Positions 8,133 to 27,396 of a stretch of DNA of 40,000 bases are shown one piece after another (the stretch's first letter is position 1; each line of letters opens with the position of its first letter). A program made the translations under genes and the position numbers. This DNA is from Enterobacter sp. TMH.L2. Lineage in GTDB: Bacteria > Pseudomonadota > Gammaproteobacteria > Enterobacterales > Enterobacteriaceae. Below the pieces are notes generated by a model. The model saw nothing but the letters and a program-made list of their open reading frames with translations, was not told the DNA's origin and did not search any database. The stretch lies in assembly GCA_050847315.1 (NCBI GenBank), contig CP193791.1. One strand, 5' to 3'.

Positions 8133-9416
8133 ATGACAGCAGAGATCGCAGTATTCAACAAGACAGCCGTAGCACTTGCCGCAGATTCAGCTGTAACAGT
8201 TTCTGGTGGCGGAAAGCATAAGATCTATAACGGTGCAGAAAAGCTTTTTGCCCTGACAAAGCATCATCCAGTAGGACTTATGGTCTACGGTGCTGGTGAT
8301 TTATGCACAGCACCATGGGAGTTAGTAATCAAAGCTTACCGAAGCCAACTCGGAGCCAAATCCTTTGATAACCTAGAACAATATGCACATGACTTTTTTC
8401 ACTATTTGCAGAACTCGGATGAAATCATAACTGCAGGTATGCGAGATGCTCATCTTTATCATTTTTTAAGCGAAAGTGTCTTTAACTCCCTATTTGATGC
8501 TTTCACAGAAGGGCTCGACAATACTTATTGGCTAGAATTCAATCAAGATAAGCTTTATCAAGACTTTACAGCTTATTGTTTACAATTAAAGAATAAATTA
8601 TCTGAAATTAGCTACTGTGATAACTTTGATGAAACTGATGAAAAAGCTGCTTTAGATTATACAAAACCTTTAGCTAAAAGGATCGTAGGGGAGAAGTTTA
8701 ATGATGTACAATCAACTGACTTACCAGAGAACCTGCTGAAGGTTGTGAGTGAAGTTCTCGCAGCAATGATATGTAAGCAAAGTGATATAGGTTCAATGTC
8801 AGGTATCGTAATTGCTGGATATGGCGAGAAGGACTATTACCCGAAAATTCTCTCATATGAAGTTTTTGGATTTTTTAACCAAAAAATCAGAAAAACTACC
8901 AATAAAGACAAATGTTGCATAAGCCCCGACTGTGGAGTGACCCCCTTTGCTCAGGAGGATGAGGTGGCTGCATTCATGCAAGGAGCAAGTTCTCATCTCA
9001 TTCAAAATCTTCATGGTGAGTATCAGAACTCCATAGTCAACCTGCTCGAGGGTGTTGACAAATTAGTCACAGAAATGGTAGACACTTCTAACATTGAAAA
9101 GGCTAGGGAAGGTATACTCACGATAGTTAGGGGCACTGTTGCGGAATGTAAAGCAAACATAGATAGCTTCGTCCGTGAAAATTACGTCGATAAGGTAGTA
9201 AACATGATTGAGTTTCTGCCGAAACAAGACTTGGCTTATATGGCTGAGTCTCTGGTCAATCTCACTGCCTTCAAACGGAAAGTATCAGATGATACTGAGA
9301 GTGTCGGCGGGCCAATCGATGTCGCAGTGATCTCAAAGGCAGATGGTTTCATTTGGGTAAAACGGAAACATTACTTTAACAAAGATTTAAACCATCATTT
9401 TTTTGAACGGTCATAA
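8133..9416 (+). CDS. Proteasome-beta-like / Ntn-hydrolase-fold protein with large helical insertions (427 aa)
   Basis: N-terminus MTAEIAVFNKTAVALAADSAVTV...GLMVYGAGD: Thr directly after the initiator Met and Asp at mature position 17. Central SGIVIAGYGEKDYYPKILSYEVFG resembles the proteasome IAGyDe..gP.LY.vdp.G segment. C-terminal GGPIDVAVISKADGFIWV. AT-rich and oriented opposite to the surrounding late genes. The CDS is secure; the fold assignment is by eye only. Confidence 0.6.
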   Translation: MTAEIAVFNKTAVALAADSAVTVSGGGKHKIYNGAEKLFALTKHHPVGLMVYGAGDLCTAPWELVIKAYRSQLGAKSFDNLEQYAHDFFHYLQNSDEIITAGMRDAHLYHFLSESVFNSLFDAFTEGLDNTYWLEFNQDKLYQDFTAYCLQLKNKLSEISYCDNFDETDEKAALDYTKPLAKRIVGEKFNDVQSTDLPENLLKVVSEVLAAMICKQSDIGSMSGIVIAGYGEKDYYPKILSYEVFGFFNQKIRKTTNKDKCCISPDCGVTPFAQEDEVAAFMQGASSHLIQNLHGEYQNSIVNLLEGVDKLVTEMVDTSNIEKAREGILTIVRGTVAECKANIDSFVRENYVDKVVNMIEFLPKQDLAYMAESLVNLTAFKRKVSDDTESVGGPIDVAVISKADGFIWVKRKHYFNKDLNHHFFERS

Positions 9417-9439
9417 AAAATAGCCATTAAGGAGAAAAC

Positions 9440-9583
9440 ATGTCACTTAAGCAAGCTTATGAAAACTCTCAGCAAAAAAGCATCCATGACTTCTTTCATG
9501 TAAGTAAGTCATCAAAAATAAGACGTAATGCATCTAACAATGAAAATTTTTTCATGAAACTAATCAAACCATCTAATACATAA
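9440..9583 (+). CDS. Small basic hydrophilic ORF (47 aa) downstream of the Ntn-like gene
   Basis: ATG 5 nt after AAGGAG, 23 nt after the upstream stop. MSLKQAYENSQQKSIHDFFHVSKSSKIRRNASNNENFFMKLIKPSNT. Followed by a terminator. Below the ORF-track size cutoff. Confidence 0.45.
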   Translation: MSLKQAYENSQQKSIHDFFHVSKSSKIRRNASNNENFFMKLIKPSNT

Positions 9584-9589
9584 CACCGT

Positions 9590-9617
9590 AAAAAGGGCCC
9601 GTAAAGTGGCCCTTTTT
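9590..9617. terminator. Bidirectional rho-independent terminator between the plus-strand cassette and Q
   Basis: AAAAAGGGCC-8 nt loop-GGCCCTTTTT, with A/T runs on both sides. Lies 6 nt after the Q stop on the minus strand and 6 nt after the small ORF stop on the plus strand. Confidence 0.7.
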
Positions 9618-9623
9618 GACGTT

Positions 9624-9974
9624 TTAAGAACAAGTTACAACTGCCATTACCCCTTCTAAAAACCCCAAAGCATTTAGCATTTCTTTCCTTATAGTACCAT
9701 CCGAACATTTACGTTTTTTCGCAATAGCCCTTAGAGAGACGCAAAACAAAAAATGGGCAATTATCAGTTCAAAGTACTCTTGGTGGTGTTTTTTTAACCT
9801 AACCACGCAGCTATCAATCATCATTCCTTCATCATCGCTACACATGATCCGGGCTTTTTTTCCATGAGACAGTAACCCCTTAAAACCAGCCGCAATAGGT
9901 TGCCAGTCAACGCCACTATTGTTGGAAGCAGCCCATGCTCCCCACATGTCCAAGGCCTCATACATATCACGCAT
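9624..9974 (-). CDS. Late-gene antiterminator Q-like protein
   Basis: 116 aa, the last gene of the nin-like region before the lysis genes. The C-terminal ...SLRAIAKKRKCSDGTIRKEMLNALGFLEG resembles the HTH-like end of the phage antitermination Q family. Confidence 0.7.
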   Translation of the reverse strand: MRDMYEALDMWGAWAASNNSGVDWQPIAAGFKGLLSHGKKARIMCSDDEGMMIDSCVVRLKKHHQEYFELIIAHFLFCVSLRAIAKKRKCSDGTIRKEMLNALGFLEGVMAVVTCS

Positions 9975-9987
9975 AGTGTTCTCCTAA

Positions 9988-11022
9988 TTAAGCCAGCACA
10001 CCAAGCGCAAAGGCTCGGTCCAAAGTGTTTTTGAGCATGACCAACTGAGAACCGTTCTTACGCTCGAATTCCCTTTGGTCTCGGTGAAGTTCGTCATGGC
10101 ATTTCCGACACAGGGGAATAGCAAAGCTGTCATGCGATTTTGTGCCCATCCCTCCCTGTCCATACCCGATCAGGTGGTGGGGATCATCCGCTGAAGAACC
10201 ACAGCCCTCGCACGGTTGTGATTTAACCCATTTCAGATAGTCAGGTTTTTCCCAACGAATTCGTTTTGGTCGCGAAAAAAACGTTTGAGGTGATTCGGGA
10301 TCTGCCACCAGCGCAACAACGGGCTTTTCTCTGACTTGTTCCTGCTGTTGTTGACTCCGGAAATATGCAGCTCTTTTCACCAGTTCGCTGGTGGCCGGAA
10401 CAGATGGCTCGATTTCACTTTCACGATAAACCGAGAGAATGGGTTCTGGTTTGAAGTTGAGTGCGCGCCGGGCCATTGCCTCTCCTATCGCTTCGGAAAC
10501 ACCCATATAAACGGCCCACCAGCAGAGCTCTGCCAGTGAAAGCTCTCTATCGCTATTGAATCCGAGTTTTGAAAGGACTGTTTCGATTACCCAGGCTTTT
10601 ACATTCTGCAGCGCGATGGCTTCCAGCTGCTCTGTGCTCTGTTCCCGTAATTTGTTATCGCATGACCAGCAAAGGTGCATAGCGCCAGGGCTATGCCGCA
10701 TCATTACCTTTTCTTTATGGTGATAATCCGTGTGTGGCCACTGACAATGAGGGATGCGGCGAAATAGCCAGGACTCGAGCGACGTGATACCGCCGGCAGC
10801 CTGAATGACTCGCTCATCTGCGAAAAACGTATCAAGAGATTTATCTTCGCCTAAGGGCTGCCGCGCATCCGGTATCTTTCCAGAGGGAAGATTTGCCATT
10901 GCTTTTGACGGTATTTCTACAAGGACCCTGCCATACCCAAAAAGCTGCATCAGGTCCCGGCCCGGCTTGAGCAAGACCACACCCAGATTATGTGCAATCT
11001 CTACGGTCAGAATAGCGCGCAT
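9988..11022 (-). CDS. DUF968 (YdfU-like) prophage protein
   Basis: C-terminal CEGCGSSADDPHHLIGYGQGGMGTKSHDSFAIPLCRKCHDELH is the Cys/His-rich signature seen in DUF968 proteins of lambdoid nin regions. Confidence 0.75.
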   Translation of the reverse strand: MRAILTVEIAHNLGVVLLKPGRDLMQLFGYGRVLVEIPSKAMANLPSGKIPDARQPLGEDKSLDTFFADERVIQAAGGITSLESWLFRRIPHCQWPHTDYHHKEKVMMRHSPGAMHLCWSCDNKLREQSTEQLEAIALQNVKAWVIETVLSKLGFNSDRELSLAELCWWAVYMGVSEAIGEAMARRALNFKPEPILSVYRESEIEPSVPATSELVKRAAYFRSQQQQEQVREKPVVALVADPESPQTFFSRPKRIRWEKPDYLKWVKSQPCEGCGSSADDPHHLIGYGQGGMGTKSHDSFAIPLCRKCHDELHRDQREFERKNGSQLVMLKNTLDRAFALGVLA

Positions 11023-11378
11023 GGTTCAGCCTCCCGGATAATGATTTTGCCGGTTGTTCCCCATATTTTTGACACGCGCCCATCCCAGATATGGCTATCC
11101 TCGCCAAATAAGGCATCAAGTAACGCTTTCTCAAGGTTGTCTTTATCGGGCCGTGACTGGTGAGGCTTGCCGTCATACTCCGCCTGTTTTTTTTTGCTCC
11201 AGCTCGGCGGCATTGGAAGAACAAAAATTACGTGATAACCGCACTCAGGCAGCTCAATTCGATTCAGGCGCACCGCATCACAGAACGCCCGATACCGTAA
11301 GACCTCGGGGCGCTTCTTCCACTTATCAGCGCGTGTCATTCGCGGTTTGCCCATAGGGGTTATGCTGTAGGCTTTCAT
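11007..11378 (-). CDS. rusA: Holliday junction resolvase RusA
   Basis: MKAYSITPMGKPRMTRADKW...RPDKDNLEKALLDALFG is the RusA signature. The start at 11378 overlaps the upstream stop (TGATG). Confidence 0.9.
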   Translation of the reverse strand: MKAYSITPMGKPRMTRADKWKKRPEVLRYRAFCDAVRLNRIELPECGYHVIFVLPMPPSWSKKKQAEYDGKPHQSRPDKDNLEKALLDALFGEDSHIWDGRVSKIWGTTGKIIIREAEPCALF

Positions 11379-11581
11379 CACTGCCTCCAGCACGGCTGTT
11401 GGTAGGTGCGGTCGATTCGCGGCGGCGTTTTACCTTCAGGAAGTAGCGCGCTGACAATCCAGTTGGTGTAATCCGGAGCAAGGCTCTTTTCCGTAACGAC
11501 GCCATTGGCCTTATATCGTGTCACCAACTCTTCAGCTTGTTCTGCTGTTAGGTTGTCATGTTGGAACCAGCCCTTTTTCAT
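11378..11581 (-). CDS. Hypothetical nin-region protein (67 aa)
   Basis: ORF tightly coupled to its neighbours by overlaps at both ends. No family recognised. Confidence 0.5.
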   Translation of the reverse strand: MKKGWFQHDNLTAEQAEELVTRYKANGVVTEKSLAPDYTNWIVSALLPEGKTPPRIDRTYQQPCWRQ

Positions 11582-11985
11582 AGCTGCGCTCCGTGAAGTT
11601 CCAGGAACGCGATAGCCCTCTCCCTTGCGCCGGGATAGCCATCAACCATTTCCTGCAGCAACTGCACCGCCAGGATCGGCTCCTTGGAACCGACAATCGA
11701 TATGCCGCGGGAAACGCCTCGGGTGATAGCTATAACGCCTTTGCGCTCGAGGGCTTTGAGATGCTCTGCCGCAGCATTTGGTGAATTTACGCCGAGTAAC
11801 TCAGCAAGCTCCGTTGTTGAAGGCGGATAGCCTTTTTGCTGCAAGAATGAAACCAGAAGGTCGAATACTTCTTGCTGGCGAGGCGTCAGAGAATGGTTTT
11901 TTACCGGACGTGTCAAAGTCCCGGCTGAGCCACTGCGGCTATCGGGTTTGTGTGTTTCAGATTTTTTTGAGGTGTTTTGCGCCAT
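11578..11985 (-). CDS. LexA N-terminal DNA-binding-domain protein lacking the S24 peptidase/cleavage domain (135 aa)
   Basis: [63 protein letters not shown] tracks E. coli LexA residues ~4-70 ([63 protein letters not shown], from memory). There is no AG cleavage site or Ser/Lys domain. GGAGA RBS 6 nt upstream. Confidence 0.8.
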   Translation of the reverse strand: [135 protein letters not shown]

Positions 11986-12024
11986 GGTAGTCTCCGTGGC
12001 GCAGCAGATGTAGGGTGTTCAGGC

Positions 12025-12318
12025 CTACGAGTGAAGTGTATCAAAGCAACTGGTAATCCGGTAGCCCGCTTTCTCAAGCATCTCTGTAAACAGTGTCGGT
12101 GTGCCAATTATCTCTTCTGGTCGCAGGGGAACGAATGACACCTCATCACCACGCCTGTATAAAAGCGCCCTTCCACCATCAGGGAATGAGCCGAATCTTG
12201 CAACCACTGCAAAATCCTCGCAACGAATAAGCGCGTAGCCTGTGTCCGGCAACTCTTCATTAATTTTTATCACTTCGTTCCCCTCTGGCTGCCCCGAACG
12301 ACCTGACCATGGCTTCAT
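12025..12318 (-). CDS. Hypothetical 97-aa protein, first gene downstream of the SOS-box promoter; candidate antirepressor (inference)
   Basis: ORF starting ~90 nt downstream of a canonical LexA box and promoter. No family recognised. Confidence 0.5.
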   Translation of the reverse strand: MKPWSGRSGQPEGNEVIKINEELPDTGYALIRCEDFAVVARFGSFPDGGRALLYRRGDEVSFVPLRPEEIIGTPTLFTEMLEKAGYRITSCFDTLHS

Positions 12319-12408
12319 CCCCCGCCATGCGAGTGGCTATGAAGCACGTCTTTCAGGGTATAACGGAGGATGATTTCTTTGCTCAAAATACCTCCCCACC
12401 TTAAAACA

Positions 12409-12455
12409 CTGTATGAATGTACAGTTATTATTAACCTGTTTATTTTGGATTGCAA
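12409..12455 (-). promoter_or_regulatory. LexA (SOS) box CTGTATGAATGTACAG (12409-12424) with a minus-strand promoter: -35 TTGCAA 12450-12455, -10 TAATAA 12428-12433
   Basis: Perfect CTGT-N8-ACAG with an AT-rich centre; the 20-mer is CACTGTATGAATGTACAGTT. On the minus strand TTGCAA-16 nt-TAATAA lies immediately upstream, so the box covers the predicted start site. Confidence 0.7.
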
Positions 12456-13127
12456 TGAAAAAGGCTCAACAGTACGTTTATGTGGTATTTATCGTTTTTT
12501 CAGTAGGTTAAGTTTTGTTCATGCTATTCAGGCGGTCTGCTGCCCATCAGTATAAAGCTCTGGTAAACTAGCTCTAACCAAAGCTTCGACGAACGGTGGC
12601 GGTGTCGAATTCCAACAGCGCTCATTGGCATACTCAAATCGATGATGAACGGTTACGGGAGCTATATCCAATGCTCACCGCAATACACAATGATGTTGTT
12701 CTTGCTCTTACTATTCGTATCTAGCCCTATCGAGTCAAACACAGATAGATATCGGCCTGCCTTACATAATGCCCACAAGGTTTGCTTTGAGCGAGAACCG
12801 GGCATCGACTTAGCGTGATTGAAGGGAATCTCAAAAGTTTCTGGCATTGTTTACTGGAATACTTACACAGAGTTGCAACTGCCTACATAAAGTGGAAATC
12901 TCCGACTGTATTCGATTCGCCCTGCCAGGGGCATACGCACAAGACGAGATTGTACCGAATTTACAGCTCGGTGATTCAATAAGAAGGTTGAAAGAGACCA
13001 TAGATAAAACATAGAATCAAACTTTAGAGTAGAACTATCCTCATACTTGTTATAGACGACATTAATTACCTGAAGATATAATTAGCATTGAGAATCTAAA
13101 AAAATCATTTCACTTGAGAGAAATACA

Positions 13128-13916
13128 ATGGACGAAAAAATACAGCTCCCCACAGCAGAAGTTTTTTATATGAACCATCCATTATACGAAGAAATATCGT
13201 ACTCAGAAGAAAACGTCGCTGAGCTAGAAAAAATGCTTTTAATTATCCAAATGAACGACGTGCATTGCCCTGATTGTCAAGCCTCCAGCCTTTTCAAAAT
13301 TAATAATAGTTTGTCCAAATCCTTTTACCAAGGATGGCATAAAGAAAACAATAGCTATTGCAAAATGGTTTATAATTGCCTAAGAAATTATGAACACTCA
13401 CTAACTTTCTTTTTCCGAATTGACAACTTTAAAGTCCAAAAAGTTGGTCAATATCCTTCAATGGCTGACCTAAATACATATGATGTAAAAAAATACGCTA
13501 CAGTCTTAGATAAACAACAATATAGTGATTTACGTAAAGCCATAGGATTAGCATCACATGGTATAGGAATTGGCTCATTTGTATATATAAGAAGAATTTT
13601 TGAGGATCTTGTAGAAAGAGCAAGGGTGCATGCTGAAAAGCAAGGAGTAATGAATAATGAAGAATATAAATCTTGTCGGATGGCTGATAAAATAAAAATG
13701 TTAGAGAAATTCCTTCCCCCATTTCTTGTTGAACATCGAAAAATTTACGGAATCCTTAGTAAAGGAGTGCATGAATTGACTGAGGAAGAATGTCTAAAAT
13801 CATTTGATATAGTTAAGGTAGGGATTGAAATAATTCTTGATGAACATCTTGAGGAAAAAGCAAGGAAAGCGAAGATAGATGCTGCATCTAAAGCCATAAA
13901 TAACCTTCAGCATTAG
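13128..13916 (+). CDS. Zn-ribbon plus DUF4145-like (HEPN-related) helical-domain protein (262 aa); candidate exclusion/Abi gene
   Basis: Very AT-rich single gene flanked by long non-coding AT-rich DNA. HCPDC...YCKMVYNC (CxxC...Cx5C), then QYPSMADL and helical ...GIGSFVYIRRIFEDLVE...IYGILSKGVHELTEEE, reminiscent of DUF4145 architecture. The canonical R..N..H motif is not intact. Confidence 0.4.
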   Translation: MDEKIQLPTAEVFYMNHPLYEEISYSEENVAELEKMLLIIQMNDVHCPDCQASSLFKINNSLSKSFYQGWHKENNSYCKMVYNCLRNYEHSLTFFFRIDNFKVQKVGQYPSMADLNTYDVKKYATVLDKQQYSDLRKAIGLASHGIGIGSFVYIRRIFEDLVERARVHAEKQGVMNNEEYKSCRMADKIKMLEKFLPPFLVEHRKIYGILSKGVHELTEEECLKSFDIVKVGIEIILDEHLEEKARKAKIDAASKAINNLQH

Positions 13917-13918
13917 TT

Positions 13919-13952
13919 AAAAGGGCTGTGTAATTACGCAGCCCTTTTATTT
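13919..13952 (+). terminator. Rho-independent terminator of the 262-aa gene
   Basis: AAAAGGGCTG-loop-CAGCCCTTTT followed by ATTT, starting 3 nt after the stop. Confidence 0.8.
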
Positions 13953-14311
13953 AAGGAAAAATGTAAAACAGTGGCCCTGGAGCAATAGTAAACATTAATG
14001 ATTGTGACTTGGGAACATATTCTCAGGATTTCGGCTATCTATAGCATAGATATCCGGAACATTAACAATATAATAAAGATAATGATATACTCACTTGCTC
14101 TCCATAGATTAGCATATATCAAGATCTGATCCTAGCACAGAGCAGACTGTTAGATTAGATTCCGCTCTGAGCCATAACGGCGTCAGTTCAAACCTGAACA
14201 TCAGCCCCGGTTACACTATTCAACAGGAGCTACTGAGTAGTGTTGTTTGTAATGAATGGCAGCAGCTAGGGTGTATTTTGACTGCTGCTCTCAGAGCTTC
14301 GGTGTTATTGC

Positions 14312-17038: not shown

Positions 17039-17425
17039 ATGAAAACTATGTCCGAAATCATCGGCGAGAGACTCAAGACTCTTCGCGACAGCAAGAACTT
17101 AAGCCAAGCGCAACTTTCCAAGCTGTGCGGGTGGGCTACTGCTTCACGTGTCGGTAATTACGAACTGGGTGTGAGAAACATCGGGGTTGATGACGCGGTT
17201 ATTTTGGCAAGAGTGTTAGATACAACACCAAGCTACATCTTATTTGGCGATGAGGAGAATCGCGGGCAAGAGCTACCTGATAAGCAAAGGAAAATTCTAA
17301 AACTTTTCTCGCAACTGCCTGAGTCAGAACAAGATAAGATGATTGACCTCTTCGAGGTTCGTTTGAAAGAGATTGATGAGTACGTTGAAAAGTATCTAAA
17401 AGGCCGTTTTAAACCGGCTTCCTAA
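17039..17425 (+). CDS. CI-like prophage repressor (XRE HTH) without an S24 autocleavage domain (128 aa)
   Basis: LKTLRDSKNLSQAQLSKLCGWATASRVGNYELG HTH. Divergent from Cro. The short helical C-terminus has no Ala-Gly / Ser-Lys peptidase module. Confidence 0.8.
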   Translation: MKTMSEIIGERLKTLRDSKNLSQAQLSKLCGWATASRVGNYELGVRNIGVDDAVILARVLDTTPSYILFGDEENRGQELPDKQRKILKLFSQLPESEQDKMIDLFEVRLKEIDEYVEKYLKGRFKPAS

Positions 17426-18009: not shown

Positions 18010-18030
18010 ATCGAGTTTTGACCAATGGCC
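18010..18030 (+). repeat. Intergenic repeat copy 3 (21 nt, one internal mismatch)
   Basis: ATCGAGTTTTGACCAATGGCC. Lies 2 nt after the 45-aa ORF stop and 24 nt upstream of the Rrf2 start. Confidence 0.85.
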
Positions 18031-18053
18031 TGCACTGGCCGAGGAATGTGATT

Positions 18054-18398
18054 ATGGAATTTGGCATGAAGCGCGTGATGGCATCCGTTCACGCAATGGC
18101 GGCACTACAGCGCATTTCAAACGGCTCGTTCGTAGCCCTGACCACGCTTAGCAAAGAGGCGAATCTTTCCACTTCTTACCTCGAGCAGATTTTCAATAAG
18201 CTGCGCGTCGGAAAGCTCGTTGTTTCTCAACGAGGCCCAGGCGGCGGTTATGCGCCCCGCGCTGGTGATATTTCAGTTTCAGAAGTCATCCGGGCAGTCA
18301 GCAAGATCCCCAATAACGATACCTTTAAACCCGTTCTGACCGCTCTGGATGGTGTGTTGCTGTCTGAGCTGGCAAAGAGTCAATCAGCAGCCCCATAA
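18054..18398 (+). CDS. Rrf2-family (IscR/NsrR-type) winged-helix regulator without cluster-ligand cysteines (114 aa)
   Basis: LSKEANLSTSYLEQIFNKLRVGKLVVSQRGPGGGYAPRAGDISVSEVIRAV matches the Rrf2 signature (S.SYLEQI..KLR.AGLV.S.RG..GGY.LAR...I...DVI.AV). GAGGAA RBS 7 nt before the ATG at 18054. Confidence 0.8.
   Translation: MEFGMKRVMASVHAMAALQRISNGSFVALTTLSKEANLSTSYLEQIFNKLRVGKLVVSQRGPGGGYAPRAGDISVSEVIRAVSKIPNNDTFKPVLTALDGVLLSELAKSQSAAP

Positions 18399-25771: not shown

Positions 25772-27396
<1,625 letters not shown>

Follow-up and report, generated by a model that had tools for sequence, protein, structure and literature searches.

What might a prophage gain from a protein that has the DNA-binding domain of LexA, has no peptidase and is itself encoded behind an SOS box? 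The question is raised by a gene at 11578-11985, here called the LexA-domain gene, in a 40,000-nucleotide (nt) stretch of Enterobacter sp. TMH.L2 (contig CP193791.1; below, the window). A first-pass annotation of this stretch had described the product as an uncleavable LexA mimic that could re-close both the SOS regulon and the phage's own SOS promoter after induction. The follow-up analysis tentatively favours a related answer, to which somewhat less than even confidence is given: a RecA-insensitive dimeric repressor that would act on LexA-box-like sites, the box of its own promoter included, and would thereby provide delayed negative feedback and damping of the SOS response.

A LexA DNA-binding domain without the peptidase

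The gene and the parts of its product, a protein of 135 amino acids (aa), are located as follows; the long clade is one of two clades of its family, described below.

11578-11985, minus strand: LexA-domain gene, 135 aa, PHROG 362, ATG start, stop codon at 11578-11580
11890-11985, minus strand: N-terminal extension, residues 1-32, present in the long clade only, predicted to be disordered (AlphaFold2 (AF2) model, variant comparison)
11686-11889, minus strand: winged helix-turn-helix of the LexA type, residues 33-100 (Pfam, phmmer, AF2, Foldseek)
11749-11784, minus strand: recognition helix, within the winged helix-turn-helix
Residues 92-95, minus strand: wing SRGI, within the winged helix-turn-helix
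11581-11685, minus strand: two-helix C-terminal module, residues 101-135, helices 101-115 and 120-131 (PHROG 362 profile, AF2, conservation)

According to Pfam, residues 32-94 match LexA_DNA_bind (PF01726) with E=2.2e-24 and 85.5 bits (cutoff 23.7), and the same scan contains no match to Peptidase_S24, the domain of the Ser119-Lys156 dyad. E. coli LexA is matched at E~1e-20 over residues 32-105 (phmmer against the PDB). The alignment to LexA ends near LexA residue 76, the protein itself stops 35 residues past the wing, and the Ala84-Gly85 cleavage-site linker is not present in this alignment. The lexA equivalog of NCBIfam (TIGR00498) reaches 76.7 bits, below its curated cutoff of 110.95, with model positions 3-89 of 203 aligned. 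The sole Ala-Gly of the protein, residues 21-22, belongs to the N-terminal extension and has a context unlike the LexA cleavage site. Two claims of the first-pass annotation are thus borne out, namely that LexA profiles align to the DNA-binding domain only and that both the cleavage site and the Ser/Lys peptidase are missing. Judged by its sequence, the gene encodes a LexA DNA-binding domain without cleavage site or S24 domain; because both the S24 domain and the Ala84-Gly85 linker are absent, the protein is predicted to be incapable of self-cleavage.

The AF2 model, computed from an alignment of 54 homologues, shows residues 1-30 as disordered (pLDDT, the predicted local distance difference test score, ~40), followed by a winged helix-turn-helix (35-97) and helices 101-115 and 120-131 (pLDDT 73-88). 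Foldseek superimposes it on LexA DNA-binding domains with 0.7-1.9 Å over 66-69 columns at 58-61% identity; the N-terminal domain of E. coli and other enterobacterial LexA (PDB 1LEA, 3JSO) has the same winged helix-turn-helix, with this identity over ~70 residues. Unlike LexA, however, the window protein ends in its own two-helix tail, begins with a disordered N-terminal extension of 32 residues and lacks the S24 peptidase-dimerisation domain. Fold searches of the PDB and BFVD with the model return matches to the LexA domain only, none of them specific to the tail, and stand-alone LexA domains are common among the predicted viral structures of BFVD.

A GGAG stands 6 nt 5' of the ATG. The databases list an identical protein under the name "DNA-binding protein [Enterobacter sp. 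TMH.L2]". When the locus was compared by Megablast with phage records and with complete E. coli genomes, there were zero matches, and homologues are therefore detectable at the protein level only.

As for the ~35 C-terminal residues, which the first-pass annotation called unrelated, they are conserved in the family and form two predicted helices. The profile of PHROG 362 ("transcriptional repressor") aligns with residues 32-134 (profile positions 3-105 of 106, E=1.6e-39), so the C-terminal 35 residues belong to the family. Entropies were computed over 43 family representatives with <85% identity, and the low-entropy positions of the tail are A106, L109, L110, L113, A120, R121, A124, F127 and L128. 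In the model, the tail is a candidate dimerisation element.

The N-terminal extension, described earlier as basic, is real and its frame is conserved in the long clade, whereas its basic charge is not: net charge spans -3 to +4 over 45 variants. These 45 distinct in-frame variants, which include two probably spurious upstream starts, keep the frame through an indel of 4-5 codons, and the extension is therefore translated. In the window, no alternative start yields a complete LexA domain. The start of the extension is conserved in the long clade as MAQ.T or MTQ.T. A side observation concerns [AV]-Gly at position 20/21, present in 38 of the 45 variants (residues 21-22 in the window, 11920-11925); within an otherwise poorly conserved, disordered extension, it is reminiscent of the Ala-Gly sites at which S24 substrates are cleaved.

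An SOS box at the promoter of the operon

The operon that contains the LexA-domain gene begins with the following features.

12427-12455, minus strand: sigma-70 promoter-like site TTGCAA-17 nt-AATAAT (consensus scan)
12409-12424: canonical LexA (SOS) box CTGT-N8-ACAG, CTGTATGAATGTACAG, beginning 2 nt past the -10 hexamer
12025-12318, minus strand: p97 gene, the first after the SOS box; open reading frame (ORF) of 97 aa, PHROG 1813, no assigned function (profile and homologue comparison)
11378-11581, minus strand: p67 gene, 67 aa, PHROG 1212; the LexA-domain gene's stop codon and the p67 ATG overlap (ATGA)

Exact CTGT-N8-ACAG occurs twice in the 40 kilobases (kb) of the window, against 0.42 expected. 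The site at 12409-12424 is the only one in the window that comes close to the 20-base-pair (bp) SOS consensus when no more than one core mismatch is allowed. It is located ~420 nt upstream of the LexA-domain gene with a single gene between, and the promoter-like sequence beside it is kept in the three closest IMG/VR relatives. A terminator scan of 9400-13200 predicts no minus-strand terminator from the SOS box to 11578. The earlier claim that the gene is part of an SOS-box-controlled unit is supported by the box, the promoter-like site and the lack of an intervening predicted terminator, with 43 of 52 long-clade loci arranged alike; the unit mirrors the LexA-controlled dinI-antirepressor operons of the Gifsy prophages (PMC3121763). 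The second exact match, CTGTGGGAAGAAACAG at 25925-25940, has a G+C-rich spacer, lies beyond the integrase gene and is probably a chance occurrence, not a LexA site.

The real start of p97 is probably GTG 12273, which would give a protein of 82 aa. The 18 homologues in the databases, mostly of 78-86 aa, align from this codon, and at the upstream ATG of the ORF a G-rich stretch directly abuts the start codon. From the p97 stop to the start of the LexA-domain gene there are 39 nt, and at the other end the ATGA overlap suggests that p67 is translationally coupled to the LexA-domain gene.

The leader between the SOS box and the first gene (12319-12408, minus strand) carries a strongly conserved ATCATCCTCCGTTATACCC, along with a Shine-Dalgarno-like GGGGAGG that has a TTG after it. 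The resulting 23-codon TTG ORF was rejected as probably not coding, its frame being broken in one relative (L087). The fold of the leader RNA is not significant (z=-1.26), and no Rfam family matches it. Upstream of the SOS promoter and outside the range of the terminator scan, a palindrome follows a divergent gene:

13913-13954: 24-nt palindrome, possible bidirectional terminator, behind the divergent 262-aa gene

A comparison is offered by Gifsy prophages, where terminator-like palindromes stand ahead of the LexA box (PMC3121763).

A prophage with an antirepressor-type operon

The window prophage has lambda-type P and O-like replication genes together with CII/YdaT-like, RecE-like exonuclease VIII, integrase, lysis and terminase genes, and is Gifsy/Rac-like in organisation. 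Its candidate repressor has no S24 domain, which implies induction via an antirepressor:

17039-17425, plus strand: candidate prophage repressor, 128 aa, HTH_3 only, DicA-like, no S24 domain (Pfam/NCBIfam scan)

Gifsy repressors are not cleaved either, and their induction requires a small antirepressor; its operon, LexA-controlled by experiment, follows the replication genes and reads dinI, antirepressor, irsA (PMC3121763). In phage SPN3UB the SOS box overlaps the dinI promoter, and gp59, a homologue of p97 with 76% identity, follows directly after dinI. Thus p97 sits in the antirepressor position, and by analogy of position it may have an antirepressor role. The AF2 model of p97 is unusable (pLDDT 49.7).

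The annotated order in Gifsy-2 is DinI, a 73-aa ORF (L005 3465-3686) and the NinB-like STM1020; the last two are presumed to be gftA and irsA, respectively, the record leaving them unnamed and the assignment following the gene order in PMC3121763. Two candidate equivalences were examined on this basis. p97 does not align to the presumed 73-aa GftA, and irsA is not the LexA-domain gene: the Gifsy-2 slot holds STM1020, with no LexA-domain match. NinB/IrsA occupies the slot of the LexA-domain gene in both SPN3UB and Gifsy-2, and p97 homologues without a LexA-domain gene are found in SPN3UB and in Citrobacter phage Chris1.

The dinI-antirepressor operons of Gifsy-1/2/3 and Fels-1 (PMC3121763), as well as coliphage 186 Tum and N15 AntC, share with the window a LexA box at the promoter and a small gene directly downstream. 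The Gifsy type also has in common with it the location of this promoter inside the nin region and a short, non-cleavable prophage repressor. Unlike Gifsy, however, the window has no dinI, its p97 is dissimilar to the presumed GftA, and the LexA-domain gene stands where Gifsy has irsA.

Two clades of one family

A survey of homologues in other prophages, which the first-pass annotation had proposed, found PHROG 362 relatives in 71 phage records (three host lexA matches left out) and in at least 531 IMG/VR contigs. Phage members include mEp390 gp43, SfV orf42, SfIV, cdtI, many Stx2c phages, and Klebsiella phages and prophages. The protein would therefore hardly be an unusual device for a phage, as had been thought: its PHROG is large, stand-alone LexA domains are common in viral proteins, and one such protein, GIL01 gp6, has been characterised (PMC6182141). 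Literature searches retrieved no functional study of any PHROG 362 member.

In all of the following loci the gene occupies the same slot of the nin region, upstream of RusA, DUF968 and Q. The genes concerned in the window are:

11007-11393, minus strand: RusA Holliday-junction resolvase gene, next in the operon (Pfam)
9988-11022, minus strand: DUF968 (YdfU-like, HNH-type) gene (Pfam)
9624-9974, minus strand: antiterminator Q gene, end of the nin region (Pfam)

This slot is common to the window, mEp390, a Klebsiella phage, Salmonella prophages and 80 IMG/VR loci. Late genes of the window are expected to depend on Q antitermination.

Clades and neighbourhoods were counted in the best 80 of the at least 531 IMG/VR loci, of which 52 belong to the long clade and 28 to the short clade. 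Long-clade proteins have 130-135 aa and come from Enterobacter, Klebsiella, Raoultella and relatives; the window protein is one of them. In all 52 loci a p97 homologue is followed by the LexA-domain gene, a p67 homologue, (RusA) and DUF968. A dinI gene stands in front in 41 of them and is absent in the window and in L086-L088. Exact CTGT-N8-ACAG is present within 1.5 kb upstream in 43 of the 52, usually as TACTGTTTATTTATACAGTA ~37 nt before dinI, and in most of the remaining loci either an insertion has moved the box further upstream or the contig is truncated.

In the short clade (~106 aa), neither dinI nor p97 nor an SOS box within 1.5 kb upstream is found in any of the 28 loci. E. coli, Shigella and Salmonella members are ~106 aa long and located in the plain early operon; one Salmonella short-clade gene is translationally coupled between methylase genes and rusA, and in mEp390, whose repressor is of the S24 type, the gene has a replication-region gene on one side and rusA on the other. 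The N-terminus of the short clade mirrors that of LexA. Compared with the short members of PHROG 362, the window protein has the N-terminal extension and belongs to a long sub-clade placed behind the SOS box, (dinI) and p97. SOS-promoter placement is stable for the long clade, not for the whole family.

This arrangement varies among loci. In place of a single box, tandem SOS boxes 1 nt apart occur ~1.2-2.2 kb upstream of the LexA-domain gene in L109, L128, L133 and L136, and several Klebsiella loci have an extra box ~480 bp upstream of the dinI box. In Chris1, a 29-aa ORF (L004 2330-2419), MAQDQFKQSLILTLTNASDFLFAASRGAL, stands between the p97 and p67 homologues and shares the MAQ start and the FL..GAL end with the LexA-domain gene. 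This ORF may be a deletion remnant, which suggests that loss of the gene is compatible with a viable phage.

The protein and its family were already present in databases under generic names, and truncated LexA homologues of phages are a known kind. New here are the two-clade structure, the fixed association of long-clade genes with operons of the SOS-box/antirepressor type, the conservation of the tail, and the hypervariable helix positions 44/45 set against an invariant host helix.

The recognition helix and the case for a proposed SOS-box repressor

LexA contacts DNA through Ser39, Asn41, Ala42, Glu44 and Glu45, all in helix 3 (PMC3091678). The window protein keeps the equivalents of four of these five (Ser39, Asn41, Ala42 and Glu45) and, among other LexA residues, Arg7, Gln8, Glu30, Lys53 and the SRGI wing. 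The scaffold is also conserved across the 43 representatives, with entropies of 0.00, 0.16 and 0.32 for Ser39, Asn41 and Ala42, respectively, and with Arg7, Gln8, Glu30, Lys53, Arg64, Gly65 and Ile66 invariant or nearly so. Among 200 DNA-binding-domain-only sequences, variants of the 44/45 region include AAE (window), VLL, VAL, AAD, AND, ATD and AAT. The AAE helix of the window is among the closest to LexA in the family, which makes binding of the window protein to CTGT-type half-sites, or SOS boxes, plausible.

The favoured explanation, a RecA-insensitive repressor of LexA-box-like sites, would work as follows. A gammaproteobacterial LexA winged-helix domain, captured by a phage, would have been fused to a two-helix module and a disordered extension; having neither the S24 autopeptidase nor the cleavage site, the protein could not be inactivated by activated RecA. 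Host LexA would keep the nin-region promoter shut. Upon DNA damage this promoter would fire, producing first the ~80-aa protein in the antirepressor position and then the LexA-domain protein, and later the same genes would also be transcribed from the early rightward operon. The C-terminal helices would dimerise the protein, and the dimer would sit on LexA-box-like operators, its targets being the single SOS box of its own promoter and possibly host SOS boxes. The outcome would be delayed negative feedback on the antirepressor operon and an SOS regulon damped during lytic growth.

This explanation is supported by the clear LexA fold and sequence, the four retained contact residues, the conserved tail with its two predicted helices, the candidate repressor without an S24 domain and the experimental LexA control of equivalent Gifsy operons that carry the antirepressor (PMC3121763). 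Moreover, the only SOS-like box in 40 kb is found at the promoter of the gene's own operon, and the order box, (dinI), p97, LexA-domain gene, p67 is met again in several genera and with several helix types. The stabilised N-terminal fragment of LexA is reported to still repress SOS genes (Neher et al. 2003, Genes Dev), and the same fragment reportedly dimerises on DNA (Kim and Little 1992, Science), results that make the model chemically reasonable.

Several findings, however, weigh against it. The window protein has Ala in place of Glu44. Ala-Glu-Glu at 43-45 is found in 73 of 74 full-length host LexA proteins, a by-catch of a genome-contig scan with the family alignment that was swamped by host lexA and is used as a control only, and Glu-Glu at 44/45 in none of the 200 DNA-binding-domain-only sequences. 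Within the recognition helix, variability is highest at positions 44 and 45 (entropy 2.09 and 2.04). The helix type does not track the cis box, since the canonical boxes found with the AAE group also precede the genes of Klebsiella relatives whose helices are VLL or VAL. Given that the short clade has no box within 1.5 kb upstream, SOS-box self-regulation cannot be the general role of the family. The seeming loss of the gene in the Citrobacter phage may mean that it is dispensable. Finally, GIL01 gp6, an analogue that has been characterised, is a transcription activator whose recognition site is not that of LexA (PMC6182141).

Taken as a pattern of sequence conservation, the entropies are those of a DNA-binding protein with relaxed or diversifying base specificity and not those of a strict LexA mimic. 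The feedback mechanism proposed by the first-pass annotation appears plausible for the window protein and weakened as a family-wide idea.

A bolder form of the favoured explanation, which must be called doubtful, regards the protein as a RecA-proof LexA surrogate made together with an antirepressor from a LexA-repressed promoter. It would re-close the phage promoter, giving a pulse, and in lytic growth re-silence the host SOS regulon as well as the LexA-controlled antirepressor operons of rival prophages, while variation at 44/45 would tune which boxes are re-closed.

If repression of SOS boxes is confirmed, it would represent a widespread and simple phage override of the host damage response by a repressor that the host is not able to remove. 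Consequences would follow for prophage induction dynamics, for the competition among co-resident prophages whose antirepressors are under LexA control and, in Enterobacter, Klebsiella, Salmonella and E. coli that carry Stx phages, for mutagenesis and toxin expression that depend on SOS. If other sites are bound, the family would represent a natural re-targeting of a host repressor domain, parallel to GIL01 gp6. The invariant host helix and the hypervariable phage helix together offer a ready-made mutational design.

Alternative explanations

The best-surviving alternative, possible if on the unlikely side, is that the LexA-derived domain has diverged in specificity and reads a phage- or clade-specific operator, as a repressor or activator of phage genes, its place behind an SOS promoter being a by-product of the mosaic nin slot. 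Positions 44/45, hypervariable on a conserved scaffold and without the Glu-Glu that is near-invariant in host LexA, speak for this explanation. It is also in line with the short clade in a plain early operon without an SOS box, with NinB/IrsA in the same slot of SPN3UB and Gifsy-2, and with the precedent of GIL01 gp6. However, the window helix departs from LexA at one contact residue only, the SOS-box link holds throughout the long clade, and palindrome and inverted-repeat scans yielded no alternative operator. As for these scans, the search for 4-mer palindromic half-sites (spacings 2-12) that track the helix type was uninformative, being dominated by the shared ancestry of the loci, and the inverted repeats at 9-18 kb of the window contain no operator candidate.

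GIL01 gp6, from a Bacillus thuringiensis tectivirus, is like the window protein a truncated LexA homologue (PMC6182141). It is 44% identical to the LexA domain of its host, consists primarily of that domain and lacks a separate module for dimerisation; as an activator of late transcription it binds at -43.5 of P3, to a site that is not of the LexA type (PMC6182141). Coming from a Gram-positive tectivirus, it was probably captured independently, and in the fold search tectivirus LexA-domain proteins appear as distant structural matches only. A second comparison is provided by engineered fusions built on LexA's DNA-binding domain for LexA-based bacterial two-hybrid systems (Dmitrova 1998), which repress sulA if the fused partner dimerises (PMC7595419). 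These fusions and the window protein both join a DNA-binding domain deprived of its native C-terminal domain to another, potentially dimerising, element. The fusions, however, retain the wild-type recognition helix, unlike the window protein.

It is improbable that the long-clade protein acts chiefly as a partner of p97, tethering, timing or titrating antirepressor action, and is not primarily a transcription factor. Such a role would fit the presence of p97 next to the long form in 52 of 52 long-clade loci and the restriction of the extension to loci where p97 occurs. This co-occurrence, however, may reflect common descent; moreover, SPN3UB and Chris1 have p97 homologues without a LexA-domain gene, the short clade functions without p97, and the AF2 model of p97 is unusable as structural evidence.

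Interference at the protein level, through poisoned LexA heterodimers or through a GIL01 gp7-like or DinI-like binding of RecA or LexA, seems more improbable still. SOS modulators such as dinI do neighbour the LexA-domain gene in related operons, and a surface for interactions could be provided by the conserved ARERA..FL tail. The heterodimers envisaged by the first-pass annotation are nevertheless unlikely, as LexA dimerises through its C-terminal domain (PMC3091678), which is absent in the 135-aa protein, and the strong conservation of the DNA-binding scaffold argues that DNA binding is the selected activity.

That the gene is a decaying, functionless fragment of a captured lexA, as the 29-aa remnant seemingly left in the Chris1 slot might suggest, is very unlikely in view of relatives in at least 531 IMG/VR contigs and a large PHROG, a frame conserved across 43 representatives at <85% identity with invariant structural residues, an N-terminal frame kept through in-frame indels, and translational coupling to its neighbours.

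Neighbouring genes and a second LexA-like family

PADLOC and NCBIfam give no matches for the neighbouring genes of the LexA-domain gene. Two genes oppose the phage operons: a 262-aa gene at 13128-13916 (plus strand, PHROG 25239), flanked by the palindrome at 13913-13954, and a 427-aa gene at 8133-9416 (plus strand, PHROG 5990). Both have zero Pfam, NCBIfam or PADLOC matches and look like morons. In the early leftward operon, beside the RecE-like exonuclease gene, an Rrf2/IscR-like winged-helix gene (18018-18398, plus strand, 126 aa) is a passenger unusual for a lambdoid prophage.

A second family of DNA-binding-domain-only LexA proteins is present in Klebsiella and Raoultella (P0083-P0120). 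Its members have ~157 aa, the recognition helix SPNAAATHLKAL and a different C-terminal domain of ~85 residues with a CYCGG motif, and they are annotated as 'SOS-response repressor and protease LexA' despite having no peptidase match in precomputed Pfam.

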